DNA from: Phyllosticta citribraziliensis
Taxonomy: Eukaryota
DNA length: 64,000 nucleotides
Reading direction: 5' to 3'
Assembly (NCBI RefSeq): GCF_038025025.1
Contig: NW_027117339.1
Coordinates: 1,178,001 to 1,242,000, forward strand
Each line of letters starts with the position of its first letter. The first letter of the stretch is position 1. A program made the translations under genes and the position numbers. Of the stretch, positions 33,208 through 55,779 are shown piece by piece. The notes beneath the pieces were generated by a model, which was not told the DNA's origin, searched no databases, and saw only the letters and a program-made list of their open reading frames with translations.

Positions 33208-34350
33208 AGTGGTGTTGAGGATGAGGACGAGGACGAGGACGAGGTGTGAGAGCACCACCACAGAAGTCCCAAGAGTCGGGTTGAAGTGTTTGCAACGACG
33301 ACGCGCGAAACAGGCCGGGCGTGCCATGATTTGTGAGATGTAGTCTCATCAACGGCAAAGATTCGAGTCGTTCTCTGTGTGACTTGTGCTGCAGCCGCAA
33401 CCCGCGCAATGCCGCCGACCAGAGTGTCCCAGGCTCCCGCCCGACCTCCAGCCACACGACCAAGACTTGACCGTCGCCTTGTTTCGACCTGCCGTGTGCC
33501 AACTTTGCCATGTCGCCCCACGAAGACCGGACGCGCGGTCATGCTGTCTTGAGTTGGAGCGCTCCCTGTCTGTTGAACGAGAGCTTCTCAGTGACTATCA
33601 AGCAAGTCCACGGTGCCGATCGCCATGCAGTACAGTATCCCCTGCCTCTGTCCGGCGTTCGTCTCTCCAAAAGGCGGGGCGTCGTCGCGCTGGCTGCGGC
33701 ATCAACTGGCGAGATGAAGGGGCCATCCCGTAGTTGGAATGCCTGAGGGCGAATCACAATGCACACGGCCTCAATCAGAGTTGGTACCGGTTGCGTGTGC
33801 TAGTGCTGCAGAACCCCGAACCGTGCCATCCCGTCTAACGCACCAACGAGAGCATTGGGCAACCGTCGGCTCTGGGATCGTCTGCCCATGCAAACATGGG
33901 TTTGCTCCACTCTTCACCCTCTCGGAGCATTGATCTTGACCACTCCTCCCGCCCTCTGGCGTTTTGAACGGTCGCCGGCCTCTTTGATCCTGCCCAACAA
34001 CTGAGGTGCTTTTTGTACGCCGTGTTTTTTTATTTTTTTCATTTTTTATTTTTGTGCTTGATTGTTTATTTCTCCAACCTTCCCCTGTTTCTGCCTGCTA
34101 CTGCTCAACCTCACCACCATCACCGTCCTCGTCCTCGTCGCCGTCGCCGTCGCCATCCTATCCACCTGCCCCGCTGCCCAACCCGTCGTCCTATGGAACT
34201 CGAGAGAATTCTTTAAGAGCCATTACTCGATAGTCGCGGGCCACCCGTGCCCGGCCACGATTTGCCGTGCTACAAGGACTGTGCTGCTTTTAAGCTCACC
34301 TAGCACCACCGCACGGCCAGCCTCACTTGCGTCACAACCAGCCTTTCGAT

Positions 34351-37300
34351 ATGGGCAACGCCCCGTCCAAGGAAAGTGGCCGGGAAAATGCACGCACCAA
34401 AGACCGCGTTCGTGAATTAAATCAACCGCCGGCGCCAATTGTCGACCGACAACCATCCCACAAATCCATTTCGCCAAAAGCTCCCGAAGCCACTGGTACT
34501 GACGTCGTTTGGACGTCGTCGGGTGGGGCATACAGAGAGAGACAGGGCGCCCAAGAGCATCTCCGAATGCATCTCCGCAATTCCCGCGACGATGCACCCT
34601 ATCGCGAGCCGGCGCCGGAGGAGGACGGCTTTGGAGAGCTCAGCCAAATGAGAAATCGTCTGTCGGGCGTCTCGCGCCATCCCTCTGTCTACTCGGACAT
34701 GCAAAGCAACCGCTCAACGTCTGTCAGGACCCGTGGTACAGGATCCAGGATGTCGATGCCACCGCAGAATAGCCCGGTCGACCTCGAAGCCACAATCTCG
34801 ATCCTGCAAGAATTGAGAAAAACGGCAAGTCCTGAGCAGCTCGTTGCCTTGCGTATGTATCATCCCTTTGCTCCCTGCAAGCTCTACGCTGACATTGTTC
34901 AAGATCGAGCACTGCTGCCGACAAAGGAGGAGGCTTCGACATCGGAAACGCGGAGCATCACACCTGGCAGTGATTCGGGCGCTGCTCTCGTCCGCCGGCG
35001 CTCCCTGGCTGTGCCCGGCCTTGCTACCCGCGACACATACAATGTGCTGCGGAAGAAAGAGGAGCCTTCGCCTCCCATGCCTGCCAGCGCCGACGGCTGG
35101 TGGGGATTCGAGGACTTTGGTCCTGCATCGCCCTCGCTGATTGTGCCTGCGTTCGACTCTCCTCGAGAAGAGAAAAAGTCGCAATTCCAAGCAAACGCCT
35201 CTGGCGACGAATTCGACGATTATTCTCACCTCGGCAACAAAATTGGCAAGCTGACGATCACCAACGGTGCTCCCTCGCCTGTACCCAGCACCATGTCTCG
35301 CTGTGTAGAAAAGGAAAAGTCCATGCGGGACCTTCTGGAAACGGAAAAGGCTGCCCTTGATCAGGAATCCACAGATGCATCCAAGATTCGAATTGCAAGG
35401 ATCCCACCCTTGGTTTTGGAGAACTCTGGCACGACCGAAAGGTCCAAGGACGGCAAATACAAGAAGCCCAGGCCAACCAGCCCACGTCGAGGCGAAAGCT
35501 ACGTAAAGGGCGACGATTCCCACGCCATGGGGCAACCGAGTCCGAGCCACTCCATGGCAGAAGAGTACGTGGCCGAACTGGCAGCAGGTGGAAACCCCTT
35601 CCACTGCAAGACCCCCTCTCCAAACGTTTCCCAAGCTGGATTTATCGATGAAGGATTTCACGAGGCTCGTTCACCAACAAAGTCCAGGGCAGCAGCAGCA
35701 CGCATTACCGACGTTCGTGGTTTCGACCAAACGGCCTCCGAGGACATGGATCGGAGCGGTCCCAATCAAGGTAAGCTCCGACGGCCTGTTCATTTGCATC
35801 ATCCGGACTCTGGATACTCGTCTGGAGTCAGCCTCAACGCGGTGGACCTTGCGAACCGCGACTCACAATATGCAGGTGCTACAGCTTCTTCATCTCCGAT
35901 CAGACTCAATGCCCAGCAACTCGACGGCGCAGACAAGAACGCAGGCGGTCCGCTCAGCCCTAGACAAGAAGTTACGTCTCCAACGAATGTTTCCGAGAGC
36001 CGCGCACCCACAGAGAACGGCGATGTCAAGAAACGCAGATGGATGACCGACCGGGTCAAGAATCGCAGACGCCTGTCTCTGAAAAATCTGCCCTTTACTG
36101 GCTCCGGAATGAATTGCACCGACAGCTCTCGACCTGGCTCTCGGGCATCCTATCTTGAGCCAGCAAAGCCAGTTCCTGCCAAATCCGAAGTAGTCGAAAG
36201 AACCCTGTCATCCAAGCCGTCACGGAGAAAGTTGCAAAAGCGACGTCTCTCGAGACTTGCACAATTCTCGACTGAGGACCCTCCCACCGTTCCTGAAGTT
36301 GTGAACGAGCCAAGCTTCTCAGTCATGCTTCCCCCCCAGACGAATGCGGATCCTCAAAAGAGTGCCGAGATGACGGTAAGCCACTCGACTCCAGACTCTA
36401 ATAATCAGGATTCGGTCCTCATCTTGTCGCCACGGCCTTCCACCAAAAATTTGCGTTCGGTAGCCGGACGCGACAACGACTCGCCCGACTCGCAGCGATC
36501 TAGCCGCAAGGGCAAGGAGCCTGTGTATCAGCAAGGCGGAGAAGATGAGCAACACATCACCCGGAGCGCCGCGCCATCTCGCCCCAGCAGCTCCGGCACC
36601 ACTGCCACCAAGACTGCCAGGTCCAAGGGCAAGGCTTCCGCTGCCAGGGAAGCCCGTGCTCTCAGCATTAAAGTCTTGCGCGATCAAGCTGCGGCTGCCC
36701 TGGACGCCGAAAGCCCGTCGGAGCTAGCGATCCTTCGCGGTCGCGGCAGCACAGTGCCTGACCTTACATCCCCGTCGACATCCCCCTCTCGCTACGACGG
36801 AAGCCAGGGCCGGTCTCGCCCCAACAGCTACTATGGCAACGATCAGTTGAGGGCAAATGCCAGGCGCGCCGACACACCCAACTTCTCCAGACCGCATAGC
36901 GTCGTGTCATCGTGCGACTCGCCGCCGCCGCTACCGGAAAAGAGGGTGAGTGGGCTGTCGCTCAACACCGATGTCGGCAACTTTGCGTTACGACGCAAGT
37001 CCAAGTCGTCGTTGCGGGAGCAGGAGGAGAAGATTGTCGTCGAGTACCCGGAGGAGAAGATTTGCGTCGACTCCGAATACCCTGAAGATCTCATGCCCAA
37101 GCGGGATTCGTCCGACTCCAAGGTGTCCTCCCAGTCCAAGGTTTCGTCGGACGAGGGCAAAACGGATAGCCCCATCGCAGGCTGGGAGTCTTCCAAGGTC
37201 CATCGCCACCAGCGTGCAAAGTCGGCCGGCGATGGCATGCGTCCTGTCAGCCTCCGCAGAAAGTCTGTCGGTGAGGGTCTCAGGCCTCGCGTGCCCATGG

Positions 37301-38214
37301 ACCGCTCTGCCATGGAGGAGCGCCGCAAGTCTACCGGTGAGGGCATCTTGAAGCAGCTGGAAGAGCGCGCAGGAGACTCACTCAGTCGCTCCAACGGCAT
37401 GCGTCGCAAGTCCGTGTCAGAGGGCCTGTTGAACCAGCAAAACCCAGAGGTTCGTCGGAAAGCCGTCGGTGGCGATGTCACCACTCCTGCCGGTGCACCC
37501 CCAATGCCGACACGACGTGCGCCTCGCGAGCCGCCCAGCAATGGCAACAGCAAAAGCAATCGTCGCAAACGCGCATCAACTACGCTCACGCCCGTCTTTG
37601 CTTCGACCAACAACTCGACGACTGCCTTGTCCGAGACGGGCTACTCGGAACCGCCGACGCCCCTGTCGGCCAACAGTTCCGACCTAAACCTGCCAGCCTA
37701 CTTTGTGCCCTCGCCACGGGCCAGCCAGCTCAGTCTCCCGGCGTACTTTGTCCCCAGCAGTTCGTCGTCGTCGGCAGGAAGCGGCCCCGGTCCCGCAGTG
37801 GCCGGCGGCAGCACCGCCACCTCTCGTCCATCCAACCACCAACACCGCCGCTCGTACGCGGGACCCAGCTCGCGCACGCAGGGCAGTAGCAGCCGCCCAC
37901 ACAGCCTGGCGCTGCAGCTCAACAGCGGCGGGTCGGCCTCTACGCCGGCGTTGCCGCTCCTCAACCACAGCAGCAGCAGCAGCCTCATGCGCGACATGCC
38001 GCCCATCCCCATCCCGCCGCGCAGCCCGCAGCGGCCCGGCCCGCGCGTCATCGATCGCTACAGCGGCGGCTTCCGGTTCAATTACGAGCACGGCGTCGGC
38101 GTCGGCGGCAGCGCCGGCACGCGCGGCCCCGAGACGCGTGCGCGCAAGAAGAGCATGACGTGGACCAGCATGTTTGGTGTTGACCTGGAGGACGTGCCCG
38201 TGTTGGTGAGTTGA
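34351..38214 (+). CDS. Large disordered fungal protein with predicted N-myristoylation (MGNAPS); 51-nt intron 34853-34903
   Basis: 1295-codon open frame. Removing GTATGT..CTGAC..AAG gives PEQLVALHRALLPTK. The C-terminus has the motif DRYSGGFRFNYEHGVGVGGSAGTR...FGVDLEDVPV. Confidence 0.8.
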   Translation: MGNAPSKESGRENARTKDRVRELNQPPAPIVDRQPSHKSISPKAPEATGTDVVWTSSGGAYRERQGAQEHLRMHLRNSRDDAPYREPAPEEDGFGELSQMRNRLSGVSRHPSVYSDMQSNRSTSVRTRGTGSRMSMPPQNSPVDLEATISILQELRKTASPEQLVALRMYHPFAPCKLYADIVQDRALLPTKEEASTSETRSITPGSDSGAALVRRRSLAVPGLATRDTYNVLRKKEEPSPPMPASADGWWGFEDFGPASPSLIVPAFDSPREEKKSQFQANASGDEFDDYSHLGNKIGKLTITNGAPSPVPSTMSRCVEKEKSMRDLLETEKAALDQESTDASKIRIARIPPLVLENSGTTERSKDGKYKKPRPTSPRRGESYVKGDDSHAMGQPSPSHSMAEEYVAELAAGGNPFHCKTPSPNVSQAGFIDEGFHEARSPTKSRAAAARITDVRGFDQTASEDMDRSGPNQGKLRRPVHLHHPDSGYSSGVSLNAVDLANRDSQYAGATASSSPIRLNAQQLDGADKNAGGPLSPRQEVTSPTNVSESRAPTENGDVKKRRWMTDRVKNRRRLSLKNLPFTGSGMNCTDSSRPGSRASYLEPAKPVPAKSEVVERTLSSKPSRRKLQKRRLSRLAQFSTEDPPTVPEVVNEPSFSVMLPPQTNADPQKSAEMTVSHSTPDSNNQDSVLILSPRPSTKNLRSVAGRDNDSPDSQRSSRKGKEPVYQQGGEDEQHITRSAAPSRPSSSGTTATKTARSKGKASAAREARALSIKVLRDQAAAALDAESPSELAILRGRGSTVPDLTSPSTSPSRYDGSQGRSRPNSYYGNDQLRANARRADTPNFSRPHSVVSSCDSPPPLPEKRVSGLSLNTDVGNFALRRKSKSSLREQEEKIVVEYPEEKICVDSEYPEDLMPKRDSSDSKVSSQSKVSSDEGKTDSPIAGWESSKVHRHQRAKSAGDGMRPVSLRRKSVGEGLRPRVPMDRSAMEERRKSTGEGILKQLEERAGDSLSRSNGMRRKSVSEGLLNQQNPEVRRKAVGGDVTTPAGAPPMPTRRAPREPPSNGNSKSNRRKRASTTLTPVFASTNNSTTALSETGYSEPPTPLSANSSDLNLPAYFVPSPRASQLSLPAYFVPSSSSSSAGSGPGPAVAGGSTATSRPSNHQHRRSYAGPSSRTQGSSSRPHSLALQLNSGGSASTPALPLLNHSSSSSLMRDMPPIPIPPRSPQRPGPRVIDRYSGGFRFNYEHGVGVGGSAGTRGPETRARKKSMTWTSMFGVDLEDVPVLVS

Positions 38215-41200
38215 AGAGCGTTGTCGGTTGACTACTGATGGTGAGCTTCGTTCGTGCTTGCTTTGATGTGGTAGAGAAAAAGGACGAGATTGTTGCACGG
38301 TGGGTGTGGTGTGGAGCACAGGCCGAGTTGAGTTGAGCTGCGCTTCGCTGGAGCAGTGCTCTTACTTTCTGAATTCTGTTTCTTTTCTTCCTCTTCGCTC
38401 TTCTCTTGCTCGACTCTTTTTTATGCATGGCGTATGGCTTTCTCGTCCTGATCACCTTCATCACCACCATCATCGTTACCTCTCTTCTTTTCTCCTTAGT
38501 ACCATGGTCGTCGTCATTTTCATCATCAGCAGCAGCAGCGGCATCATCATCATCATCGCCATGGATTTCTGGTCGCTTCTCAGTTCATTGCATCAAATCA
38601 TCATCGCGCGACTACAACAGTCAGTTAAGTAGCCGGTCAGGTAATCAGTCAGCCATACATACTTAGCATTCATAAATTCATCGATCGCTCATGCATTCAT
38701 CGCTGCGTTGAATGACTGCCCCCTAGACGTAGCTATGATGGATGGGTTGAGTGACAGCTTCCAAGATCACTGATGCAGCATGTGTAATTTCCGGCGCCCG
38801 TAGTGAGGCAAATCAAGAGGGCTTCCAGAGATGCGCCGTCTCAGCAGCAGTCATGGACTCACATGAGGGGTGATGGTGGGTTACAGTCTCCAACTTGCCT
38901 ACTCCCTCCAACGAGCGAACAGGACATGACGTTGCTTGGTCTTTCCTTAATCTATTTATCTCCAGATCCTGCCCCTTGCTTTCTTTCTGACCTCGCAACA
39001 TCCACTTGGCATATGTTCGTTTCATCTCATCTGCTTTCTCTGTCGCTTATGCAAATTGTGCATTTGCTTGAGCTTTCAAGGAGACTTGGATATGGTTGCT
39101 GGTCGGTGTACATCAAGCGAGCGCGTTATCAAACCCTTGTGCAACCAGGCTAGCTGGGAAGCTGTATTGATGATTGCTATGACGCAACCGCGCAAGTCGA
39201 GCAGTGCGTTTAGATCATGTGTGAAATGAGCGAGGGTGGCACCATCAACGCAAACAGTCAATCTCGCAGAGACAGCAAAGGAGCGGCATGACCGCATCGC
39301 TCAGAAGGGGGATGACAGGGGCCGAGGTGAAGCGCAAACGTGTCAACTACTCCAAGAAGAGCGCAAAGATGAGTCCGAAGCGTTGCATGCTGAGTGTTGG
39401 TATCGCCCGACAAGAGGAGTCCAAGAAAAGAACCGTCGCGCTCGGACGTCGTGCCTATTCCGCTGGTCCTTTCGTATCAGACAGGTACTGTCCAACGGCC
39501 CAGTTGCCAAATACAGGCAGGCAACAGCAAAGTACAGAAAACGGGGACCCGAAAGCGAGGCTGATTGGATGAAGGCAGACGACAAAACTTGTTTTTCTGA
39601 CAGCAGTCATCTCTGACTTTGTGACGTACGTGGAATATTGGGCAGGATAGTACGTGCAACAGTATTGCAATCAGCCCTGCGTTCATTGTCAACGGAAATG
39701 CGTTCCAGGTACCTGGCCGGCATGCCTGCCAGCCACGCCCGGCGCCACCCGGATTCAGATAGAATGACACCTGGCCGTTGAAGTCGTTGCGATTTGCGAG
39801 GCGCAGCTGTGTTGGTTGCTGTACGACACGCTGCCAAGTCGGAGGGTGCTGACGGCCACTGAGGTCAGCACGAGGCTGCGTTTCGGGTACATATTGTGAT
39901 TCAGGGACCGTGTTGGGCCGACACGCCGACGAGTGAGACGGTATCACTTCAAGACGTGGCGTTGAGCATCAACGGTTAGAACCTTGATATTGCGCCAGGG
40001 GGGTGGCTGGCCGATTGGTCTGGAGACTGCGCGTGAGCATAGTCAGAAAGCTGCTGGCGTCGTCATTGTGAGAGGGGACTTGGTGTGTTGTTATGCGATT
40101 CGAGAGGCTGGGCTCGGCTTAAAGGTGCTGATCGGTAGGGTGGCTAAAGACTGCCGCTCAGTCGAGAAGGCGACAGCGGTGAGGCGGCAACAATCTTTTC
40201 CATGGCAAAAGAGGTGTATGCTGCAGCCGTGGCCATTATGCAACGGGTCAAATCGGAGGGAGGCGTCGGAGGCGAGAAGCAGCAAACAACAGGGCAGCGT
40301 TGCATATGGCTGGCAAACAAAGAGCCCAGCCAAGCCAGCCATACGGTGCGACCGACGAAGACGAGTCACATGGAAATGGGACGAGTAAGGAATCAAGCCA
40401 TGGAGCCTGTTTGGGCGGGTGAATCTTCTCGAAAGGCCCACGGCTGGCGGCATATGCACGTGGGGGGCCATGTCGAAATTTCCAGCGGCCGCGAGACGGC
40501 AGAAAAAAAAATTGCCATGGTCGAGACGATGGGAAACTGGGTCTGCGGTGCAACCCACGCAGGAACAAGTGCCGCTGACAGCGCAGCTTGGCGTCGCAGT
40601 CGGACGTGGAGTTCTGGTTTGGGCACTGGGCGCATCCTGGTGCCGGGGAGCATTCCAGGCGCAGACGCGACGTCATGGCAGCGTAGTGATCGGGAACGAT
40701 CGAGGGTTGAAGGGACCGCAGCTCTGCCACGGCCGACGGGGCTGGGAGTGGAACTGCGACAAGCTGGAGCTGGAGCTGGAGTTGGAACTGGAGCTTGGGG
40801 CCGAAGACGAGTGGCACTCGGAGAGGCAGAGAGACGTGGGAGGGTGGTGTTCTTCGGCGTAGGACAGGGATGTCAGCTCTGGGGAGAAAAAAACAAACCG
40901 AGCACAACAAGACATGGAAGGGACCACAACCAAGGCGCAGACTTCCTTGTGCTGTTTCTCTCCTCTGTACGCTCAGGTCCGCTTCTCTTCCAGTTCGGCG
41001 GCCCGCGCACGGCCCGCTCATGCCGGTGACGAAACCGCCTGCCATCCTGGTCAACTGCCCAAATTCCTCCTCCACACCCTTCCATCCACCTCACAACCTC
41101 CTCTCTACTACTCCTCCACCTCGACCCTCCGACCCCTACCACCCTTTCTGCCTGTCAAGAACCCTTCCATCCCTTGATCTGCCACCTCGGCACCCTTCCT

Positions 41201-41318: not shown

Positions 41319-44300
41319 ATGTCTCACATCCACGTTTCTCTGTAAGCTGCCCCCGCATATGGAGCATTCGCGCGCGCGTCGACGTCCCGGCACCTACGTG
41401 TGGAGCATTCGCGCGTTGAGCGTCTGCCCGCCTGGGAGCATTCGCGCGGTGATGCAGCTTCACCCGCGTCAGGCTTGGGAGCATTCACGCGTTGACGACT
41501 CTTCATCTAAATTTGGAGCATTCGCGCGTCAAGCTCATCGTCACCTGCGCAGGGAGCATTCGCGCGTGTTGACGCACCTCACCTTTCAATTGCTAATCAA
41601 ATGCTTCCTAGCTTCCTCCCCATTACAATCGACTTCCATGCCCAGTCATCCCCAGCTAGTAGGCGACCAAGCCCACCTCCACGTGCCCCATCTCTGCTAG
41701 ATGCAAACAAGGACGCCAATGAGCAAAAGGCCAGCTTGTTCTCTCAGCCTACCCCGCCGCAGACTCCCTCTGCCAATGCTCGCCACGAGGAATTCTTCAC
41801 CCAGGTTCAGCCTTCCGTGCAGACGCACTTTCCCAAGCCGCACGACCCCAAGGCCCTGGTCCGCAGTGATGCCCACGTTCCAGAATGGGGCACAGGCCTC
41901 GCCTTCTTCAACCAGCCTCCCCGCTCGCGTCCCGCCAACCTGCCCCCGGATGACATCCTTAGGTACACAAAGACTTCTGATGGCCAGGATGCGACCTTTC
42001 CCAAGCCGAGGTACTCGCGCAAGGAGCCTGGCAGGGCCAGCTTCTCAAGCAGGCCCAGCCGCAGTGGATCCAGGCAGAGGTGGGATGCCGAGTGGACCGT
42101 CGAGCCTGCTGTTCAGGGCAACGGCGGCCTAGCAAATGCTGTCCGCGCCGCCATCAACGCTGGCACCATCAAAAACGTCCTCTGGGTCGGTACAGTTGGT
42201 TTCCCGACGGACGCTCTCGATGAGAGCAAGAAGCAAGAGATTCAGGACAAGCTAGAGTCCGAGCACGATGCACTTCCCGTCTGGGTCAAGGACGGTGACT
42301 TTGACGGCCACTACGCTCACTACTGCAAGACCATTCTCTGGCCCGTCTTCCACTATCAGATTCCTGATCACCCGAAGAGCAAGGCGTACGAGGACCACTC
42401 TTGGATCTACTACGAGCATCTGAACCAGGCCTTTGCCGACAAGATCATCAAGTCGTACAAGCGTGGCGATGTCATCTGGATCCATGATTACCACCTGCTC
42501 CTTGTTCCAGGCATGGTTCGCAAGAAGCTCCCAGACGCTCAGATCGGCTTCTTCATGCACACGGCCTTCCCGTCTTCAGAAGTTTTCCGTTGCTTGGCCT
42601 CTCGCAAGCAGCTTCTCGAGGGAATGCTTGGTGCCAACCTCGTCGCCTTCCAGTCTCGCGAGTACGCCCACCACTTCTTGCAGACTTGCAGCCGCATCTT
42701 GATCGTCGAGGCCACCAACGAAGGCATCCAGCTCGAGAACCGCTTCGTCAATGTGGCGTGGCTTCCCATCGGTATTGATCCTAAGGCTCTTCAGGAAGCC
42801 CGCGAAGAGCCCATGGTGGCGGAGTGGATCAAGGTCATGCTTGAGCGCTACAAGGGCAAACAGCTCATCGTTGCTCGCGACAAGCTGGACAGCGTGCGTG
42901 GTGTCAGGCAAAAGCTGCTCGCGTACGAGCTCTTCCTCAATAAATACCCCGAACACAAGGATAAGGTCAGTCTCTGCTTCAGCACCAATACTTCACCATC
43001 ATGTATACTAACACTTGCAAAAGGTTGTCATGATCCAAGTCGCGACCTCGACCACCGACAATCCTGAGCTGGCGAGCACAGTCTCGGATATTGTCACCCG
43101 CATCGACTCGATGCACTCCACGCTGGCTCACCAGCCTCTCGTCTTCCTTCGCCAGGACATTTCCTTCTCTCAGTACCTGGCATTGCTGTCTGTTGCGGAC
43201 ACGCTCATGATCACGAGTCTCCGTGAGGGCATGAACCTCACCGCGCATGAATATATCATGTGCCAAGATGGCATGGGCAGTGACAAGAAGCACGGCCCGC
43301 TGATTCTTAGCGAGTTCACGGGCAGCTCCTCGATCTTCAATGGCTTCGAACTGGCCGTCAACCCATGGGACTACCAGAAGTGCGCCGACGCCATCAAGGC
43401 GGCTTTGGTCATGGCACCTGAGGAGAAGGAGCGTCGCTTCACGAAGCTTCGCAACGTCGTCTCTCATCACACGGGCGATTATTGGATCAACACTCTGAAC
43501 AACGTCCTCGCCAAGGTCCACTCTGAGCACTTCATGAGGGACACCATGTCGATTCCCCGCCTTTCCCTCTCGCAGGTCAGCGAGAAGTACAAGAATGCCA
43601 ACAGACGCATCTTCATTCTCGACTACGAAGGCACGCTCGCGTCCTACGGCTCCCCCACCAGCATCATCTTGACCAGCCCCCAGCGTGTCATTGACACGCT
43701 CAACGAAGTCCTTATGGACAAGAACAATATCGTCTATGTGATGAGTGGTCGTACTCCCGAGGAGCTCGAGCGTTTGTTCTCCCGCGTCCCAGGACTCGGT
43801 ATCATCGCGGAAAATGGCTGCTTTGTTCGCGAATGCGGCCGTGACGAGTGGACCGCGTTCGCGGAGATGGACAAGGTCGACGAGTGGAAGGACAGCGTCA
43901 AGGGTATCCTCACCTACTACCTGGAGCGCATCGAGGGTAGCTGGCTCGAGGAGCGTCACTGCTCCATCATCTTCCATTACGACAGGGCCGACGATATCGA
44001 GATGGCGACTTCGCATGCTGGCGAATGCGCTACGCACATCAACGATGTTTGCGAGACCCAGCACATCCACGCGGTCCCCATCGACAAGAGCATCTTGATC
44101 GAGCCCCTCGACTGGTCCAAGGGCAGTGCTGCCACCCACATCTTCAACAAGCTTCGCAAGAGGAACGTTGACAACAATGGCGCCCCTCCGGCCGACTTCC
44201 TCTTTGTCGCTGGCGATGATCGCGAGGACGAGGTCATCTTCCGCTGGGCCAACAAGCTCGGCTCGACCGGCGACATTCGCGACGTCACGACCGTCAGTGT

Positions 44301-44394
44301 TGGAACCAGGAACACTGAGGCGACGGCGACCTGCACGCAGGGCACCACTGGCCTGCTGTCGATCCTCCAAAAGCTCGCCAAGATTTCCGGCTAG
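41319..44394 (+). CDS. TPS3: Trehalose-6-phosphate synthase/phosphatase complex regulatory subunit (Tps3/Tsl1, TslA-like; GT20 plus HAD domains); exons 41319-41341, 41612-42965, 43024-44394
   Basis: GT20 motifs LWPVFHY, WIHDYHLLLVP, GFFMHTAFPSSE, REGMNL and LSEFTG, plus the HAD-like motif FILDYEGTL. The spliced N-terminus reads MSHIHVSLFLPITIDF. Introns at 41342-41611 and 42966-43023. Confidence 0.92.
41361..41566 (+). repeat. Six-copy interspaced repeat array GGAGCATTCRCGCG within intron 1 of the Tps3-like gene
   Basis: Copies start at 41361, 41402, 41435, 41478, 41515 and 41553. Five are identical 14-mers and one has a G>A change. Spacers are 19-29 nt and non-identical. Confidence 0.95.
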
Positions 44395-45432
44395 AAATCT
44401 GGCACTACTTCACTCATCGGCTCAAATTGCCCATTTCCTTTGCTTTCGACCTTGCGAGTACCCCATTTGCGTTTCCTTCGTCCTCTGGCGATTTCAGCGC
44501 ATAGACAGACCTGTAGAGTAGCTTCCCCAGCAACGGGCACTCGGCATCATGGCCCCACAGCACACAACACACAGGGAGCGTATCGGCTGCATTTGCACTT
44601 TTCTCTTCGGGGCCTGGCTGCTGGCCACCGACTTGCTTCTCACAATTGCCTCTCACGACGGTGATTGGGCGTGGTCTTTTTTTGCTTTTTTCCTTTATCA
44701 TCTCCTCTCCACTTTGCCTTCCACACCCATGGGATGGATCAGGTCATGACGAGCAGGGACAGGCGCATGGTGGGACCCCAACGGTCATGTAGATTATGAC
44801 GATACGGCGAATGGACAGGACAAAATGGCATGATTTTGATGAAAACAATGAACCGAACGGTGAAATCAAACATGAAGCAAGGACAACGGCCTGCAGGTGC
44901 CAGACAGGCAGCTTGCAGGTACAGTGAGTGAGAGGGTTGGCATGCGGCCCGAGCGGGGTGTCGGGTTACACCCGCGACCCGCGTGGTCTGTGAGAGCGCG
45001 TCGGCGTTGGCGTTGGCGCGTACAAGTTTCCAGGACAGCTGCTGCAGCTTCGCCGTAACAACTGACAGCTCAAGTCGCCGCCCTCGGCCTCTTCATTTCG
45101 CGACCTCTGCCCCCGATCGAGCCTTGTCTCACAAAACCTGCCATCGCGCGTCCCAGCGTGCCAGAGTTTTTTTTTTTTTTCCCTCTGTTCAATTCCTCTC
45201 GTCGCGCCTTGCCACCCTCTCAACTCGCTCCCGCGCCACCAGCCTCGCTAGTCGTTTGAGCTTCATCTCGTTTTGGAACCAAGCTTCAACCTTGTAAAGC
45301 TTGCTGCCCTCTGCCATCCGACTCCTCCATACCGTAACTTCCTCCGTTGCTCAACATCGCCGACACGCGTCGCCCACGCGACTACCTTCTCAGTCTCCGC
45401 CGGGCTGGACTACTCACCTCTCTCGCGTCGCC

Positions 45433-48400
45433 ATGGCAGGCACTGGCCGTCCCGGCAGACCGAAAGGCTCGAAGAACAAGCCCCGCGTGACTTCGACATC
45501 AGCACCCAATGCCGACAATCCGTCGGCTTCTAGCTCACTCGACACTGGTCGCCCAGCTTCATCGACCCAGCCGTCAAACACTCCCCCTGTTCGCGCTCAG
45601 TCATCACTTCCTCCTTCCGTCATGGCTTCTTTGGAAAGACCGAGTGTCACCAATTATGCTCGCAACCACCCCATCTTCTCTGGCTCTGAAAAGATCTCGG
45701 AGAAGAAGTACATCAAAGAAGTCAAGGCCTTTGCCAGTGCCAAAAACATCAACGAAGATTTTGTCAACTCGTGCGTTGCTGAGGCCAAACGGTTGCTCGA
45801 GGAGCGAAATACAGACGGTGCTGCTTCTGCCAAGGACATGGGGGGCACAGCTGCGCGGCCAGACGACGACCATGGTCCTGAAAAGAAGCGCAAGAAGCAC
45901 AAGACGAATGACAGCAGTGAACAGGTTGAGGCTACCTCTATTATCAAACAAGAGGAGCCCGAGGAGCCTGTGAAAGAGAAGAAAAAGAAGCACAAGAAGA
46001 AGGATGAGCCGTCTGTACCCGTTTCAACTCAAGACATCGCTGTCAAGCAAGAACCTGAGGATCCCGCTGCCGAGCACGACAAGCCGAAAAAGAACAAGAA
46101 AAAGCACAAATCTTCCGAAAGTGCTGCCCTGGCTCTGGAAGAATCTGCTGCCCAGGCCGAAGACGCAGATAGCAAAAAGCCCAAAAAACACAAGAAGGGC
46201 AAGACACCCGATGGCACAGGCGAGTCTGCGTCTGCTGCGAATCCGGTGTTCATCAAATCCGAAGAGCCTTCCACCGAAAGCAAATCGTCCAAGAAGAAAC
46301 ACAAGTCCCGTCCGGAAGCCAAGTCAGCTGATGCACCCGAGCGCCGACCAACCGAGACACCCATCCCCCTGCCGACTTCGCGGAAGAGTGAAAAGCAGAA
46401 GGATCCTGAAGAGCAGGTATCGAAATCCAAGCCCAGCAAAAAGAGAAAACGCGACCAGTCCGACAACGGGGGCTCTAGGCCTGATCCCGATGAAGCAGAA
46501 GCCTCCGACGTGGGACATGTCTCAAAGAAGAAGAAAAAGCATGGGAAAAGTGGCCAAGAGTCAGACTCAAGGACTACAGAAGGCAATAAGGAAAAGAAGG
46601 ACAAGAAGAAGAAGCACAAAGCTCACCAAGCTTCTCGATCTCCTTCACCTCCTCCGCGTAAGAAGACCAAGCGCGTGCAGCACGATGGCGAGACCACACA
46701 TGTCGCGTCGGAGGCTCCACGATCCAGTCACAAGAGTCATGAACACGCTGACAAGGGCAAGGAGAAAAAGGTCAAAAAGACGAAAGAGCCGGACACGTCT
46801 GAAGTCTCTCGGCCTGGTGCGTCGAAGTCTGCCGCGTCAAATAGAGACATGGCCTCAGAGGGTTCAGGAGACGAACGGCCCATCCAGACTGAAGACAACT
46901 CCCGGACTTCCAAGAAGAAAGCCAAAAAGGAGAGGAGAAAGTCAAAGCTGTCCAAGTCTCTCGAAACGCAACCCGCGCAGCCAAGTGACGCCATGGACGT
47001 CGAATCGCCATCAAAGAAGCTAGGGGCAGACCATGAAGCAAAAAGCGAGAAGCATTCGATGAAGGCCCGGAGAAAATCTATTGCTGCACAAGAAGCACTC
47101 GCAGCGCTTCCATTCGCTGGCGCTCAAGACTCACCTGCAAAGCCATCCAAGTCTGGACCCCGGCAACACGACTCCAAATCAGCAAAGTCTCTACCGCCGC
47201 CTGCTCCTTCCAAACGCAAGCGCTCTCCATCCCCTCCATCTGATCATGAAATCCGACCTCGCGACGCAAGAAAGTCGTCTCTGGCGTCTACAACTTCGGT
47301 CTTTTCTTTGCCCACATTGACTCGTTTCGCCAACGACTCGCTCGTGTTCCCTGAGCCACCCGAGGGCTTGAGCAACAATGCAAAGAAGCGCTGGAGGAAG
47401 AAGTTGCGCAAGTCCATGCAGAGGCTGCCGAAGGAGGCTCGCCCTGTAACCGGTTCCGAAGTTGACGCTTCTGCTCCCCAGAAAACCCATGCTGGGGCGA
47501 AGGCTGCCAGGTCTGATGACGAGAGCGACAGCGGAAAGAAGCCGGATAGGAAGAAGGCGAAAGTGGAACACGATTCCGATGACCGGCAGCATGAAAACGA
47601 TGCGGCATCAAAGGTGCCCGCCGTCTTGAAGAAGCAGCAAGCCTCAACGTCCCAGGACGCCACAGTTCATCGACCGGCTCCCCAAAGACCTCAGGTTACT
47701 GCGACCGGAAGCTTTGCGCACGAAGAGCCTTTGTCACCTGTTTCTTCACCGGAGAGGCCTGCTTCGGCACATGAACAAATGCAAGACTCGACCTCTGGGG
47801 AGGTCACTGCCGCTGAACCGATTACCCGGAAGCCTCCTGTCAACTCGGCTGGACGTCTTGCTCACGACGGGCCTTTACCGGCAGTCCCTTCGTCAGAGAA
47901 GCCTGTTACAGCCCGCGAGACTCCTGCGCCCCCTGCAGCCTCAGAATCTCCTCTCAAGTCTGACGCACAAGGATGGGATGCTTTTCCTGCCCAGTATCTA
48001 TCCGACTCGGACCAGGAAGCACGGGACGATTCTGATGTCGAGCCTGACACACCGATCAAAGCTGCGGAGCCTCTTCAACCTCAGCAGACAGGAAACGAGG
48101 ATGCAAACACCGAGTCGTCCAAGGATTCCGAGTCTGAGTCCGAATCAGAGAGTGACTCCGAGTCTGAAGCGGAAGGGCCTTTCAAGCCCAAGCCGCTGCC
48201 TCTACATCTTCCCAAGACTCCATCCCAAATTTCCACACCCTCAAAACGCCCCCTTCCTGAGCCCCCCAGTCTTCAAGCGCAGCCTCTTTTCACGCTGTCC
48301 CAGCTCAAAGCATCAACGCCCTCACTCGCAGCAAACACACGTGCCGCAGTACCACCCAAGCCGAAGACTCCGCCAAAGGCGAATAGAAACGTCGACATAC

Positions 48401-51400
48401 TTGGTATTCCGCATGGAACCGACGATAGTGACGAGGAGAGTTCTGGAAGCTCCAGCTCCAGCTCAAGCGATGACGATGACGGTGATCTAAAGACGAATGT
48501 CAAAGCAAATACCACCAAGCCTACATCTTTGCACTTTCCAAGCTCTCGGCCAGGCAGGTCTTTTGCGAAGCCCAAGACGCCTCTTCAAGGAAATTCGATG
48601 CCAGCCATTCGCAAACCTAGTGCAGCTCCGGAGATGTCGACTGCGCAGGTGCAACAACCTCTGGCAGACAGCGATGCAGGTTCTGGAGATGGGGACTCAT
48701 CGGATTCCGCCTCAAGTGACGACGACAATAACGATGACCAGGAGGTCGCGGTGAATGGCAAGAAAACAACGCCTCCGCAAGCCCAACGTTCGCAGGAAAC
48801 CAAGCTCAACCGCCCTGAGAAATCACCTTCAAAGTGGGATGAATCAAGAAACGACAACTCGGGCATCGGCCTTCAACCTCAAGAGAGCGACGATGAAACT
48901 TCCTCCGAGAGTGAAAGTGACGGCGAGGAGAATGGCACGCGGGCATTAACCAACCGGAATTCCGTGTCTCATCAGAGTCAAAGCTCTCAGAGTATCAAGC
49001 TTGAGTCGCCTCAGAGCTCATCGCCGGCACCGAGAAGTCCACAGAGAGTTTCTACCATGCCATATTCCCAGCCGGACGAGCCTACGAAGGACAAAGCGCA
49101 AGTCGAGAAACACTCTCATCAATCCGAGAGTGAAGATGAAGGCGACGAGCATGTAAAAATCAATGAGCAAGCCGAGAGGGGTGGTCAAGACAACCCAAGG
49201 TCATCCAGTAGCTCTGACGCTGAAGATTCTGCGCCGTTTGAGAGTGCGCTCCAGACACCTGCCCAACATCCCTCCCCAGCGCCCCGTCAACAACAGCTCA
49301 ATGATTCAGCAAGTGACGACTCAAGATCGCCACCGGCAAACGACATCATCAATGGCATTGCTCTGTCCAGTTCTAAGAAAGCCAGCTCTGTCGACCATGA
49401 CGGGCTTCAAAGAGAACAATTCCCTGCGGATTCAGAAGCAAATGAGCCCCGAGTCAACCACGCCCCAGCTATCGACGAGGGTATGGAAGCTGAGACCCTG
49501 CCGGATGCTGATGGAGAAAGCTTAAAGTCTGCCGAAAAGTCAAACCACAACCACGGTTCATTGGGCAACTTTGGCGAACCGGACAGTCCGTCAGTCGACA
49601 GCTCTACGAACTCACCCTTTGCCCCCATCAAGCAAAGTCATTCGTCTCCGGCAGCCGCTTCCACCGAGAACGACGAGCCCAACATGGGTCAGGTCAACAG
49701 TAACGCCGAATTCGAAGATACCTCCATTCCGTCGGGGCCTCCTCCTGTTGAGAGCGAAGGTGCCGCGGTTTCAACCTCGCCTTCGCGCCCTCTCCGCGGT
49801 CGATCTAGACGGCTTCTTGCTAAGCAACAAGCTGATGCACTTGCTAAGCAACAAGCGGATGCTCTTGCTGAGAGCAAACGGTTTGTGAGTCCAGAGTCGC
49901 CTTCGAGCCCTCTCCGCAATGAAGCTGGACAGTTCTTTACGAATCAAGAGAATAGTCCTGCTGGCAGTCACGGGGTCGTGAATCCAAAGTCCCCTCCGAG
50001 CCTCCACAATGAATCTGGACAGTTCCGTGCGAGGCAGCGATCGGCTTCGTCTGCTGAGGGTGAAGGGCTGGTGGAGTCAAAACCGCCTCCACGTCCTCTG
50101 CGCAATGAAGCTGGGAGGTTCTGTAAAAGGGACGGATCGACCGAGCAAAATCGAAAGCCAAGGACAAAGACACCACGCCGGAAGAGCGCTGCTCAGTCTA
50201 TGCTTCGAGAGCTCGGTATCGACCCTGAGACGATCAAGGCAGAGGAGCTGGATGAGCGTTCTCCAATCATGACTCGGGGGCCTCAGAGGAGCCCGGCTGA
50301 AGAATCAAGGGTGTCTCCAATTTCGACCAGACAGTCCCGTCTTCGCGCAACACCCCGCGTTTCGTACCAAGATGGCTACGATTCGAGCGAGTCGGTCACA
50401 AAGACAACAGCGCGAAGACTGTCATTCACGTCTAACAAGACAAGATCCCACAGTCGAAGACCGTCATCATCTCAAAGGAGCCGTCCTTCTCTCACCCCCA
50501 AACCCGACGGCAACTTGCCACCGAAAGTCAAGACTCCTTTCAAAACAAGGAGCGAGTTTGTGGGGGTCTTCATTCCCATCCGTCGCCCAAGCAAATCAGT
50601 CACCTCACTCGATCCTCGCGATGGGAAGTCTGCAAAACAGCAGGATGAGGACGTGGTGGCCAGCACTGCTGACGCCGATCAGGCAAATAACGAAGACCTT
50701 GCGCGCGAGCCAGCGACTCCGCCGTCGCCCTCCGAAGGTGCTCGAGACGAACATTCAGCTGCTGATGACAAGAGTGCGCACGAAGAAGTGGCTCCGCAGG
50801 ACCATGACACAGCGGAGGATGAGCAGGATCGCGACAAAGGGTACGAAAGCTCGCCCTCTGTCTACCAGTCCCCAGAAAGGCCAGTCTTTACGGCTTCTCT
50901 ACCGGCTCGTTCTGCTCCCAAAGTAGTATCTGCGGACAACGAGTCTACTTCGGAACATGAGGGTTCGGATCATGATGGAGATGTCGACGACTCTGAATCC
51001 GAAGCCACCCATCCTGATTCTATCCAATCCGATTTTTCCCGACAAGGATCGCCTGTGCATGAGAAGCAAGACTCGGGTATCGACGAGAATGAAAAAGACC
51101 TTTTTTCTTCGCCTGAAGCCGAAATCGAAAGTCACGCCCAAGATCAAGACGAACATCAGGAGGTTTTTCAAGAAAATGGCCAGGATGAAAGCCAGGAGAG
51201 CTCAGACGAAGACAAAGTATCTGAGGCGCCAAGTCGAGGGTCCGACTACTCTTTTGACGATGAGCCGAATGGATTTGTAAACGAAGACGGTACAATCTCT
51301 GGCCAAGCCACGCCCCGCCGCAGTACTGGTCGTTTTTCAACCCATTTTTCGCCGGTTAAACCAGCCCGTCCCGCTCCTGGCACTGCGCGGCTCAAGTTTC

Positions 51401-52851
51401 CATCGACCACAGCTGGAGCCTTTGGGTTGATTCAGGAGGAAGTCTACCAGGAACCGTGGCGTCTCTTTGTAGCAGTCATGCTGCTCAATGTGACCAACGG
51501 CGAAAAGGCGATTCCAAAGTTTTGGGAGCTCATGGAGAAGTATCCGACGATTAACGATCTTCCCCATGCAAACTTGGATGAGCTCACGCTCCTGATCAAG
51601 CCGCTCGGCCTTCAGGCTCGACGGGCTGAGACGATGATCAACCTGGCCAGGTTCTTGATTACGAACCCTCCCACAGTGGGTCAACGCTTCCGGCGAATGA
51701 ACTACCCGTTCAGAGGTGCCCACCGAGACATCCGGCCGGGTGAGGTGCTGTCCGACGATGACCCGCGAGTTGGCGCATATGAGGTCTCCCACCTGCCAGG
51801 TGTAGGCCCCTACGCGATTGACAGTTGGCGCATCTTTTGTCGCGACCAGCTTCGCGGGAAAGCGACCGGATTCAACGGCGAGGATGCGGAGCCTGGCTTC
51901 GAGCCCGAGTGGAAGCGCGTCCGTCCGAACGACAAGGAGCTCAAGGGCTTTATTCAGTGGATGTGGCTGCGCGAGGGCTGGATATGGGACCCGGAGACTG
52001 GCGAGAAGAAGAGGACAAGTGAGGACGAGGCGCTGGCAGCAAGCTTGGCGAGGTTGAGGTGGGATCAGAAGAAAGGAGAGGCGTACATACTCCCAAGTGA
52101 CGACGAGGAGGACCAGGCGCCAAATGGCTCGTTGTCCCGGGAGGAAGGCAATGACCCTGAAGGACCTGCGAACGAAAACGCGCAAGCATCTCAAGCAGAC
52201 TCGGCGCCCCCGAGTCACGTCTCCTCCCCAGCAGACAATCCGTCCTCCCAGCTGGAGCGAGAACAACGCAACCGCGACGCACAATCGCAGCTTGCACAGG
52301 CCCAGCTCCTCCACGAAGAACAACAGCAGCGTCTCACCAAGTCGCAACCTCGTCCTTCGACCGCCTCCCACGTACAACGCACACCCAAGGCTAAAAATCC
52401 TAATGGCACGCTGTTAACGGCGCCCGCCACCTTGCCCACTCGCCTCCGCCGGACTACCACGACGGCAACGACGAGCACCTCGTCGTCGCCCGTCTCCGCC
52501 CATCGACCCAAGCCGACGCCGCTCGACCTCTTCTCCGACGACAATGACGATTCGGCGTCGAACCTCGGCCTCCGCAGCCTCTTCAGGACACCCCGTCGCC
52601 GTCGCGGCAGCAGCGCTAAGTGGGCTGCCGCTGGCGTCGTTGACGAAACACCCCCTGTTTCTCCGCGCCGCGAAGGGCAGCAGCAGGACAGGACTGGCGA
52701 CGAAGCGGCACACGACAACGACGGCGAGCAGGACATGGACCACTTCAGCGTCATTGGGGACGACAACGACCAAGATCACGGCCCGCAGGAGACGGTCAAG
52801 GTGAACGGGAATGGGATGAACGGACACAGAGAGGCAAGTATCGAGCTCTGA
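45433..52851 (+). CDS. 2472-aa protein: N-terminal AT-hook, long K/S/E-rich disordered region, C-terminal MBD4-like HhH-GPD DNA glycosylase domain
   Basis: AT-hook-like GRPGRPKGSKNK at the start. The segment FGLIQEEVYQEPWRLFVAVMLLNVT...LIKPLGLQARRA...LPGVGPYAIDSWRIFC...RPNDKEL matches the MBD4 glycosylase pattern, including the HhH motif and a putative catalytic Asp. The ORF is uninterrupted. Confidence 0.88.
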   Translation: MAGTGRPGRPKGSKNKPRVTSTSAPNADNPSASSSLDTGRPASSTQPSNTPPVRAQSSLPPSVMASLERPSVTNYARNHPIFSGSEKISEKKYIKEVKAFASAKNINEDFVNSCVAEAKRLLEERNTDGAASAKDMGGTAARPDDDHGPEKKRKKHKTNDSSEQVEATSIIKQEEPEEPVKEKKKKHKKKDEPSVPVSTQDIAVKQEPEDPAAEHDKPKKNKKKHKSSESAALALEESAAQAEDADSKKPKKHKKGKTPDGTGESASAANPVFIKSEEPSTESKSSKKKHKSRPEAKSADAPERRPTETPIPLPTSRKSEKQKDPEEQVSKSKPSKKRKRDQSDNGGSRPDPDEAEASDVGHVSKKKKKHGKSGQESDSRTTEGNKEKKDKKKKHKAHQASRSPSPPPRKKTKRVQHDGETTHVASEAPRSSHKSHEHADKGKEKKVKKTKEPDTSEVSRPGASKSAASNRDMASEGSGDERPIQTEDNSRTSKKKAKKERRKSKLSKSLETQPAQPSDAMDVESPSKKLGADHEAKSEKHSMKARRKSIAAQEALAALPFAGAQDSPAKPSKSGPRQHDSKSAKSLPPPAPSKRKRSPSPPSDHEIRPRDARKSSLASTTSVFSLPTLTRFANDSLVFPEPPEGLSNNAKKRWRKKLRKSMQRLPKEARPVTGSEVDASAPQKTHAGAKAARSDDESDSGKKPDRKKAKVEHDSDDRQHENDAASKVPAVLKKQQASTSQDATVHRPAPQRPQVTATGSFAHEEPLSPVSSPERPASAHEQMQDSTSGEVTAAEPITRKPPVNSAGRLAHDGPLPAVPSSEKPVTARETPAPPAASESPLKSDAQGWDAFPAQYLSDSDQEARDDSDVEPDTPIKAAEPLQPQQTGNEDANTESSKDSESESESESDSESEAEGPFKPKPLPLHLPKTPSQISTPSKRPLPEPPSLQAQPLFTLSQLKASTPSLAANTRAAVPPKPKTPPKANRNVDILGIPHGTDDSDEESSGSSSSSSSDDDDGDLKTNVKANTTKPTSLHFPSSRPGRSFAKPKTPLQGNSMPAIRKPSAAPEMSTAQVQQPLADSDAGSGDGDSSDSASSDDDNNDDQEVAVNGKKTTPPQAQRSQETKLNRPEKSPSKWDESRNDNSGIGLQPQESDDETSSESESDGEENGTRALTNRNSVSHQSQSSQSIKLESPQSSSPAPRSPQRVSTMPYSQPDEPTKDKAQVEKHSHQSESEDEGDEHVKINEQAERGGQDNPRSSSSSDAEDSAPFESALQTPAQHPSPAPRQQQLNDSASDDSRSPPANDIINGIALSSSKKASSVDHDGLQREQFPADSEANEPRVNHAPAIDEGMEAETLPDADGESLKSAEKSNHNHGSLGNFGEPDSPSVDSSTNSPFAPIKQSHSSPAAASTENDEPNMGQVNSNAEFEDTSIPSGPPPVESEGAAVSTSPSRPLRGRSRRLLAKQQADALAKQQADALAESKRFVSPESPSSPLRNEAGQFFTNQENSPAGSHGVVNPKSPPSLHNESGQFRARQRSASSAEGEGLVESKPPPRPLRNEAGRFCKRDGSTEQNRKPRTKTPRRKSAAQSMLRELGIDPETIKAEELDERSPIMTRGPQRSPAEESRVSPISTRQSRLRATPRVSYQDGYDSSESVTKTTARRLSFTSNKTRSHSRRPSSSQRSRPSLTPKPDGNLPPKVKTPFKTRSEFVGVFIPIRRPSKSVTSLDPRDGKSAKQQDEDVVASTADADQANNEDLAREPATPPSPSEGARDEHSAADDKSAHEEVAPQDHDTAEDEQDRDKGYESSPSVYQSPERPVFTASLPARSAPKVVSADNESTSEHEGSDHDGDVDDSESEATHPDSIQSDFSRQGSPVHEKQDSGIDENEKDLFSSPEAEIESHAQDQDEHQEVFQENGQDESQESSDEDKVSEAPSRGSDYSFDDEPNGFVNEDGTISGQATPRRSTGRFSTHFSPVKPARPAPGTARLKFPSTTAGAFGLIQEEVYQEPWRLFVAVMLLNVTNGEKAIPKFWELMEKYPTINDLPHANLDELTLLIKPLGLQARRAETMINLARFLITNPPTVGQRFRRMNYPFRGAHRDIRPGEVLSDDDPRVGAYEVSHLPGVGPYAIDSWRIFCRDQLRGKATGFNGEDAEPGFEPEWKRVRPNDKELKGFIQWMWLREGWIWDPETGEKKRTSEDEALAASLARLRWDQKKGEAYILPSDDEEDQAPNGSLSREEGNDPEGPANENAQASQADSAPPSHVSSPADNPSSQLEREQRNRDAQSQLAQAQLLHEEQQQRLTKSQPRPSTASHVQRTPKAKNPNGTLLTAPATLPTRLRRTTTTATTSTSSSPVSAHRPKPTPLDLFSDDNDDSASNLGLRSLFRTPRRRRGSSAKWAAAGVVDETPPVSPRREGQQQDRTGDEAAHDNDGEQDMDHFSVIGDDNDQDHGPQETVKVNGNGMNGHREASIEL

Positions 52852-55708: not shown

Positions 55709-55779
55709 GTGATGAATGCTCCGTCTGGTCGTATACTTTCACGACCGACGGAGCCCTGTGACAGAATTGACCAGACTGA
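55709..55779 (+). ncRNA. Candidate box C/D-like structured ncRNA
   Basis: GTGATGA (55709) and CTGA (55776) flank a 14-bp bulged hairpin. A CTAAC..AG signal follows. No target was identified. Confidence 0.3.

Follow-up and report, generated by a model that had tools for sequence, protein, structure and literature searches.

An apparently decayed tandem repeat with six near-invariant 14-nt cores in the first intron of a trehalose-complex regulatory-type gene of Phyllosticta citribraziliensis: a possible intronic regulatory platform

Minisatellites, also known as variable number tandem repeats (VNTRs), consist of head-to-tail units of ~10–100 nucleotides (nt), and their copy number differs between relatives. 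Here we consider an array with periods of 33–43 nt, and thus of minisatellite build, which lies in the first intron of a trehalose-complex gene of the fungus Phyllosticta citribraziliensis. It was found in a stretch of 64,000 nt (contig NW_027117339.1 of assembly GCF_038025025.1, positions 1,178,001 to 1,242,000 of the forward strand), called the window below, in which all coordinates are given. To our knowledge, little is known outside yeast about how expression of the trehalose complex's regulatory subunits is controlled. In filamentous fungi these subunits influence stress tolerance, spore trehalose and cell-wall integrity, and those of the TslA/Tps3 type combine a GT20 domain with a trehalose-phosphatase-like domain, without the catalytic residues (excerpt of PMC5405227).

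Some described protein-binding sites recall parts of the array. The AbaA response element is CATTCY, usually present in several copies per target (excerpt of PMC8557821), and the StuA/APSES response element is (A/T)CGCG(T/A)N(A/C) (PMC4631450). The ATF/CRE site of AtfA is TGACGTCA, extended to ATGACGTCA, and AtfA directly binds the promoters of trehalose-synthesis genes in Aspergillus nidulans (excerpt of PMC12731236). In yeast, CGCGCG is the motif of the RSC subunits Rsc3 and Rsc30 (excerpt of PMC7822557).

The array consists of six copies of the 14-nt core GGAGCATTCGCGCG, five of them exact and one, at 41478, with A instead of G at 41487. These copies had been noticed in an earlier reading of the sequence alone (the sequence-only reading), and a pattern search returned the same starts, the same periods of 41, 33, 43, 37 and 38 nt, and spacers of 27, 19, 29, 23 and 24 nt, in agreement with the 19–29 nt given there. 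When up to two mismatches are allowed, exactly six matches are found in the 64-kb window, all on the + strand; in dinucleotide-preserving shuffles the count averages 0.89 and never exceeds 3 (0 of 100 shuffles get to six). A wider scan for the motif had been proposed; it was run within the window, on both strands, and no piece of the core of at least 10 nt occurs there beyond the array. A k-mer scan of the window likewise found no second array of like build, except for a coding repeat at 62495–62635; this has periods of 15–18, 33 and 51 nt and GTCAACGGCAATGG-like units, and probably encodes an Asn/Gly-rich repeat. Scanning a collection of metagenome contigs that is poor in fungal DNA with a two-core pattern yielded no related array, only two chance matches in bacterial coding DNA. 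Tandem Repeats Finder, run on the region, gave no rows for the array, and because the array fails to score even at a threshold of 30, it is not a recent tandem repeat.

From its sequence, the array appears to be the remnant of an old tandem repeat with a unit of ~37–38 nt that has decayed almost to saturation. This origin is indicated because the spacers keep some homology and because two ungapped repeat families (D2 and D4) connect units beyond the core. Mean pairwise identity among the spacers is 0.52, a value attained in 2 of 300 shuffles, which average 0.47 (sd 0.02); the best pairs are only 0.59 identical and no two spacers are alike. The cores have fared differently: the letter most common in the column stands in 83 of the 84 core cells, but in 89 of the 137 cells of the aligned spacers, and the probability of one mismatch or fewer in 84 core cells at the spacer rate is 8.5e-15. 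Defining the units through their cores cannot produce this pattern, because all five successive periods are a single unit long (33–43 nt) and there is no unit without a core. Purifying selection on the 14-nt core is therefore well supported by the array itself, and the earlier suggestion that conserved cores between diverged spacers reflect selection on the motif is borne out. The sequence-only reading had also named spacers that align as a simply decayed minisatellite as an outcome that would speak against it: the weak homology of the spacers agrees with such decay, but the cores have not shared in it.

Close relatives show the same contrast. Contigs from relatives B (run X4) and C (run X7) cover the unspliced array, and in both the alignment goes back by 37 nt, from 41471 to 41435, which amounts to one extra unit (seven vs six in the window); a copy number that differs between relatives is a further minisatellite feature. 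The X4 piece that holds the extra unit (41360–41471, 112 nt) carries 10 substitutions, and because the extra unit is itself diverged, turnover of units is slow. Between the window (A) and B, the piece at 41435–41641 differs by 18 substitutions. Of these, 2 affect the 56 core positions, and 16 fall among the 121 intron positions outside the cores (one-sided Fisher test, p=0.037). Both core changes fall in core 4, and the one at 41487 (A>G), also found in X7, restores the consensus; because B and C both read consensus G here, the variant letter of the window is not common to its relatives. Divergence from B reaches 13% in the spacers, against 12 of 489 positions in exon 2 and 6 of 239 in the 5′ untranslated region (5′UTR) plus exon 1, and of the exon differences listed 10 of 11 lie at third codon positions. 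Because the spacer value far exceeds those of exon 2 and the 5′UTR, the spacers appear to evolve approximately neutrally, and the pace of the cores to be roughly that of sequence under constraint.

The host gene fits a non-catalytic regulatory subunit of the TslA/Tps3 type, judging by its predicted product. This carries Pfam Glyco_transf_20 (GT20, E=1.7e-105), in a match that runs on across intron 2, and a trehalose-phosphatase-like domain, in which the HAD motif reads DYEGT where Aspergillus fumigatus Tps2 has DYDGT (5dxl alignment). With both domains and this motif, the earlier assignment to a regulatory-type gene of the trehalose complex holds. The best protein match, with the source name Phyllosticta citriasiana, is 96% identical, and the next matches are from other Botryosphaeriales, at 73–81% identity.

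The intron that holds the array is genuine. In contigs of three of four public runs (X2, X4 and X11, from three studies), 41341 is followed directly by 41612, so that the 270 nt between them, which have GT..AG ends, are missing. The spliced reading, MSHIHVSL followed by FLPITIDFH, agrees letter for letter with the N-terminus of P0001, the closest protein in the database; the placing of the array between a GTAAG donor at 41342 and a GCTAAT branch site and TAG acceptor at 41611 was thus correct. The joint from 41341 to 41612 is the single splice joint for intron 1 among the run contigs, which drop rare forms. The contigs of the three runs begin at or upstream of 41103–41132, and exon 1 ends at 41341; that of X2, of 3236 nt and identical to the window, begins at 41120, and because it starts there the 5′UTR measures at least ~200 nt, reaching at least 41120. 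In X2 intron 1 is without any cover although exon depth is 415. In X4 one contig crosses the unspliced intron at a depth of 25, against 161–668 for the spliced contigs, although the type of this run is only guessed and the unspliced contig may be DNA; neither these depths nor the gaps in intron cover in X2 and X11 are evidence of expression level. If intron 1 is retained, the frame stops at TAA 41343–41345, and an out-of-frame open reading frame (ORF) of 114 codons runs from ATG 41359. An internal start at the in-frame ATG 41601 would yield an almost normal protein. No transcripts that open this ORF or use the ATG at 41601 were obtained in the run contigs.

Intron 1 is four to five times the usual length for a host with introns normally of ~50–70 nt. 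The sequence-only reading had given 46–73 nt for all other introns in the window, a range that includes the 58 nt of intron 2 of this gene. In 120 homologues, the N-terminal ..VS(L/M)FLPxT is kept by 75, while 38 start elsewhere and seven models (P0026, P0057, P0059, P0062, P0074, P0075 and P0088) leave the family consensus exactly before FLP. Exon 1, of ~8 codons, was probably missed in those seven models owing to an intron at the same position. Protein sequences, the only source used here, suggest that an intron at this position is widespread, old and often misread. The coordinates of the features are collected in Table 1.

Table 1. Features of the array, its host gene and the upstream region (positions in the window)
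Feature	Positions	Strand	Remarks
Exon 1, coding part	41319..41341	+	Encodes MSHIHVS and holds two bases of the following Leu codon; start codon 41319–41321
Intron 1	41342..41611	+	270 nt; GTAAGC from 41342; GT..AG ends
Branch-site-like GCTAAT	41592–41597		Acceptor TAG at 41609–41611
ATG in 3′ end of intron 1	41601..41603	+	In exon 2 frame (ORF 41601..43067); would give MLPS-FLPITIDF in an unspliced or internally started transcript
Exon 2	41612..42965	+	N-terminal extension and most of GT20 domain
Intron 2	42966..43023	+	58 nt; GTCAGT...CTAAC...AAG; inferred from the GT20 match spanning it, not from reads
Exon 3	43024..44394	+	End of GT20 and trehalose-phosphatase-like domain
Core 1	41361..41374	+	Exact; a longer run of CG extends from it as far as 41378
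Core 2	41402..41415	+	Exact
Core 3	41435..41448	+	Exact; extra unit of relatives B and C aligns to 41435–41471
Core 4	41478..41491	+	The only inexact copy, with A at 41487, where relatives B and C have consensus G
Core 4, second changed position	41489		Relative B carries another change here
Core 5	41515..41528	+	Exact
Core 6	41553..41566	+	Exact
Five inter-core spacers	41375..41552		Diverged, weak leftover homology; TGACG/CGTCA half-sites in both orientations
TGACG half-site	41467	−	
TGACG half-site	41493	+	
TGACG half-site	41527	−	
TGACG half-site	41539	−	
TGACG half-site	41570	+	After core 6
Solitary 9-letter core copy	40645..40675	+	9-mer at 40647; ends CATTCC (40651); weak lead
Perfect three-unit heat-shock-element-like site, GAAnnTTCnnGAA	40421..40433		~700 nt upstream of the first transcript evidence

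We tentatively read the array as a selection-maintained cluster of putative protein-binding sites, that is, as an intronic regulatory platform. We infer binding at the level of DNA, a binder and an effect on expression as follows. The invariant cores would be recognised as double-stranded DNA. They would form a homotypic cluster, with six to seven sites at which one sequence-specific factor, or two factors side by side, would bind; a candidate is a TEA-like half (GCATTC) that adjoins a CGCGCG half of the kind read by Rsc3/Rsc30-type or APSES/MBF-type proteins, with bZIP (ATF/CRE-type) half-sites scattered between the cores. Situated ~240–450 nt downstream of the transcript start, the cluster could serve as an intronic downstream enhancer or a nucleosome-clearing platform, and would set the level or the condition of regulatory-subunit expression, with whole units still being gained or lost between close relatives (six vs seven).

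This reading of the array as a DNA element is favoured over one at the RNA level because the TGACG half-sites lie both ways, the cores end in CGCGCG and the intron shows no excess fold. TGACG or CGTCA occurs five times in intron 1, against 0.73 expected from the window-wide rate (Poisson P ~9e-4), with two sites on the + strand and three on the − strand. The distance of these half-sites to the cores is not fixed, and their conservation falls far short of that of the cores; of the weaker, TGAC-like second motif that the sequence-only reading saw in the spacers only this enrichment could be confirmed. CGCGCG ends five of the six cores, and the 200-nt array stretch contains 7 of its 35 matches in the window, where the total is not enriched (30.5 expected). 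The direct binding of AtfA to promoters of trehalose-synthesis genes in A. nidulans (excerpt of PMC12731236) is a further point for the platform.

Several points weigh against the platform. The TEA/AbaA and APSES cores, both offered earlier as possible elements of the array, were not upheld: CATTCY is found in 0 of 6 cores, all of which read CATTCG, and the StuA pattern matches the intron once, in the variant core 4 only (1/6). ACGCGT is present in one of the six cores, and CRCGAAA and AGGGG are absent from the intron. Intron 1 contains no full CRE, either as TGACGTCA or in the extended form ATGACGTCA. A heat-shock element (HSE) is made of at least two inverted nGAAn units; no canonical two-unit HSE (GAANNTTC or TTCNNGAA) is present in intron 1, and the cores fit the relaxed GAnnnTTCnnG only. 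The whole core meets no tested consensus site. Its invariance (14 of 14 letters) exceeds that of a typical single TF (transcription factor) site, and would suit a pair of abutting factors, one protein with a long footprint, or base-pairing. All copies lie in one orientation in RNA that is transcribed and spliced out, so that a role at the RNA level is possible. Conservation was seen among very close relatives only (exons ~97.5% identical), the core-versus-spacer test between species is a weak one (one pair, p=0.037), and six of the ten substitutions in the X4 piece at 41360–41471, like part of those in X7, are unplaced and stand outside it. The likeness of the solitary upstream copy (40645–40675) to the array units is not significant beyond its nine letters (equalled in 66 of 1000 shuffles).

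Among the alternatives, an element acting in RNA survives best, though we consider it unlikely. The cores would then be recognised in the pre-mRNA, either by a protein that binds RNA or by another RNA that pairs with them, and would control removal of the long intron, with retention turning the gene off. Such an element would suit an array that is transcribed and wholly intronic, and an invariance of 14 out of 14 letters in all units is easier to reconcile with base-pairing than with a degenerate protein site. Retention would have a clear consequence, through the stop at 41343–41345 and the upstream ATGs, and the X4 contig over the unspliced intron (depth 25) could represent it, if it is RNA in a run whose type was guessed. 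The intron, however, does not fold better than chance (z=+0.5; in 139 of 200 shuffles the fold is as good or better), and Rfam, searched at E up to 10, gave two matches to long non-coding RNAs; at 17.4 and 15.8 bits, both fall far short of the gathering scores (200 and 70; best E=3.6). The complement of the core is found nowhere in the window. The single splice joint, together with an intron left uncovered in X2 at an exon depth of 415, points to efficient splicing, and half-sites in both orientations would be unusable for an RNA reader. An RNA structure or a precursor of small RNAs, both of which the sequence-only reading had raised, is accordingly left unsupported by the fold, Rfam and splice results.

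Somewhat less probable again is that the array has no function, being an ordinary intronic minisatellite whose cores are alike through slippage turnover or local conversion. Turnover or conversion would homogenise the spacers as well, yet the best spacer pairs reach only 0.59, and the extra unit of the relatives has diverged (10 substitutions in the 112-nt piece). Conversion tracts are generally longer than 14 nt, and the core is short for one. On the other side, the units seem to keep weak homology outside the core too, as a minisatellite in decay would, their number varies between relatives, the motif is present nowhere else in the 64 kb, and no known site or RNA family fits it. Such a relic is difficult to reconcile with the extreme contrast between core and spacers (8.5e-15), which recurs between species.

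We think it improbable that the array is the largest cluster of a dispersed family, in which the motif would lie at further loci as a regulon site or as a mobile, introner-like piece. The first nine core letters do recur at 40647 and at 55714 (minus strand), against 0.49 expected per 9-mer, and an extra X7 contig (depth ~160) fits only 41401–41448, with unlike sequence on both sides and an imperfect core upstream. That contig, which covers cores 2 and 3 with spacer 2 only, comes from another haplotype or organism, or else from a further locus with the motif. The X7 contigs fall into several likeness classes (1/4/3/3), so the former may apply, and the run seems to contain more than one related genome. 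No inverted repeats flank the array, the intron is unstructured, unlike introner-like elements, and its position seems to be old, given the 7 of 120 homologue models that break before FLPxT.

There is a slender chance that the core is read by base-pairing, the array presenting a trans-acting RNA, or else an RNA- or DNA-binding protein of very long footprint, with six to seven identical targets, and gating the splicing or transcription of the regulatory subunit. Gain and loss of units would in that case tune the dose between species. A search of titles and the starts of abstracts found no description of a selection-kept intronic 'sponge' or guide-target array in filamentous fungi.

Arrays of clustered regularly interspaced short palindromic repeats (CRISPR) have repeats of a few tens of nt and unrelated spacers of near-constant length, and lie in prokaryotic or viral genomes, usually with cas genes. 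The identification of the array as CRISPR-like, or as a source of small RNAs, can be dismissed as scarcely credible, and the CRISPR analogy was rejected on every defining feature, since identical short repeats with unlike spacers are a visual pattern only, whereas this array has a repeat of 14 nt and unequal, weakly homologous spacers of 19–29 nt, changes copy number by whole units between relatives, shows neither hairpins beyond chance nor a match to an RNA family, and lies in a spliceosomal GT..AG intron of a fungal gene whose product shares 96% identity with a protein from Phyllosticta.

The region upstream of the gene offers further observations. Eleven bases beyond the solitary core copy lies CGACGTCAT, which, read on the other strand, fits the AtfA consensus at 8 of 9 positions (excerpt of PMC12731236). 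In addition to the three-unit HSE-like site of Table 1, a two-unit one is found at 40475–40482, both ~650–700 nt upstream of the first transcript evidence. By their sequence, these sites would supply an ordinary heat-shock input to the gene, one that does not depend on the intron array. The hexamer AGCTGG is repeated in 5.7 copies at 40762–40795, also upstream of the trehalose gene. The X4 contig with exon 1 reaches 1460 nt further upstream, which may reflect a 5′ leader of great length, a non-coding transcript from upstream, or DNA in that run. Between the transcript start of the trehalose gene and an ORF of 1295 codons (34327–38214, +) that has no Pfam family at E up to 0.001 lie ~2.9 kb (38215–41100) in which no ORF is convincing. 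On the other side of the gene, an ORF of 2516 codons (45301–52851, +) is mostly of low complexity (Lys/Ser/Glu/Pro-rich), with an HhH-GPD base-excision-repair domain near its C-terminus (E=2.9e-6).

The array offers a natural case of a tandem repeat that decays while one short site per unit stays. As judged by constraint, it would mark a functional 14-mer at single-base resolution and without experiment, and this 14-mer is a concrete motif to seek in the genomes of Phyllosticta and other Botryosphaeriales. If other stress or spore genes prove to share the core, a regulon would be defined; if it is confined to this intron, it would be a local curiosity. The locus also illustrates that a fungus whose introns are short can keep one that is four to five times as long as usual and still splice it efficiently.

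No description of a comparable element was found in the literature, in a search that covered titles and the starts of abstracts and had subscription journals outside its reach, and the core strings and their reverse complements led to unrelated papers among the matches listed. The AbaA and StuA sites of Aspergillus development genes share with the array CATTC beside CGCG and the presence of multiple copies (as far as the excerpt of PMC8557821 goes). In contrast to AbaA elements, all six array cores have G as the sixth base, and CATTCC is found only in the solitary upstream copy at 40651. With the ATF/CRE sites of AtfA/Atf1, found at stress, spore and trehalose genes (excerpt of PMC12731236), the array has enriched half-sites in common but no full CRE. 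Sites of Rsc3/Rsc30, which help to clear nucleosomes in budding yeast, are CGCGCG, as present in five of the six cores, where they would be candidate sites; this motif covers 6 of the 14 invariant letters, and in the excerpted source the factor is known from Saccharomyces promoters rather than from introns of Dothideomycetes (excerpt of PMC7822557). Introner-like elements of Dothideomycetes occur in the same fungal class and likewise make an intron much longer than its neighbours, but a stable fold is expected of them, which the array intron lacks (z=+0.5), and its position is seemingly common to distant relatives.

Relative to regulatory minisatellites, the array has decayed beyond what Tandem Repeats Finder scores, and only its 14-nt core is unchanged. 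It differs from them and from site clusters also in its fungal host, with introns normally of ~50–70 nt, and a function is here proposed from sequence. What is new with respect to the known kind is the extreme decay outside the core, the long fungal intron, and a 14-mer that as a whole fits no tested consensus. The closest known kind is nonetheless the regulatory minisatellite (VNTR) or homotypic cluster of TF sites, with which the array shares its head-to-tail units of ~38 nt and one short site repeated near the 5′ end of a gene.

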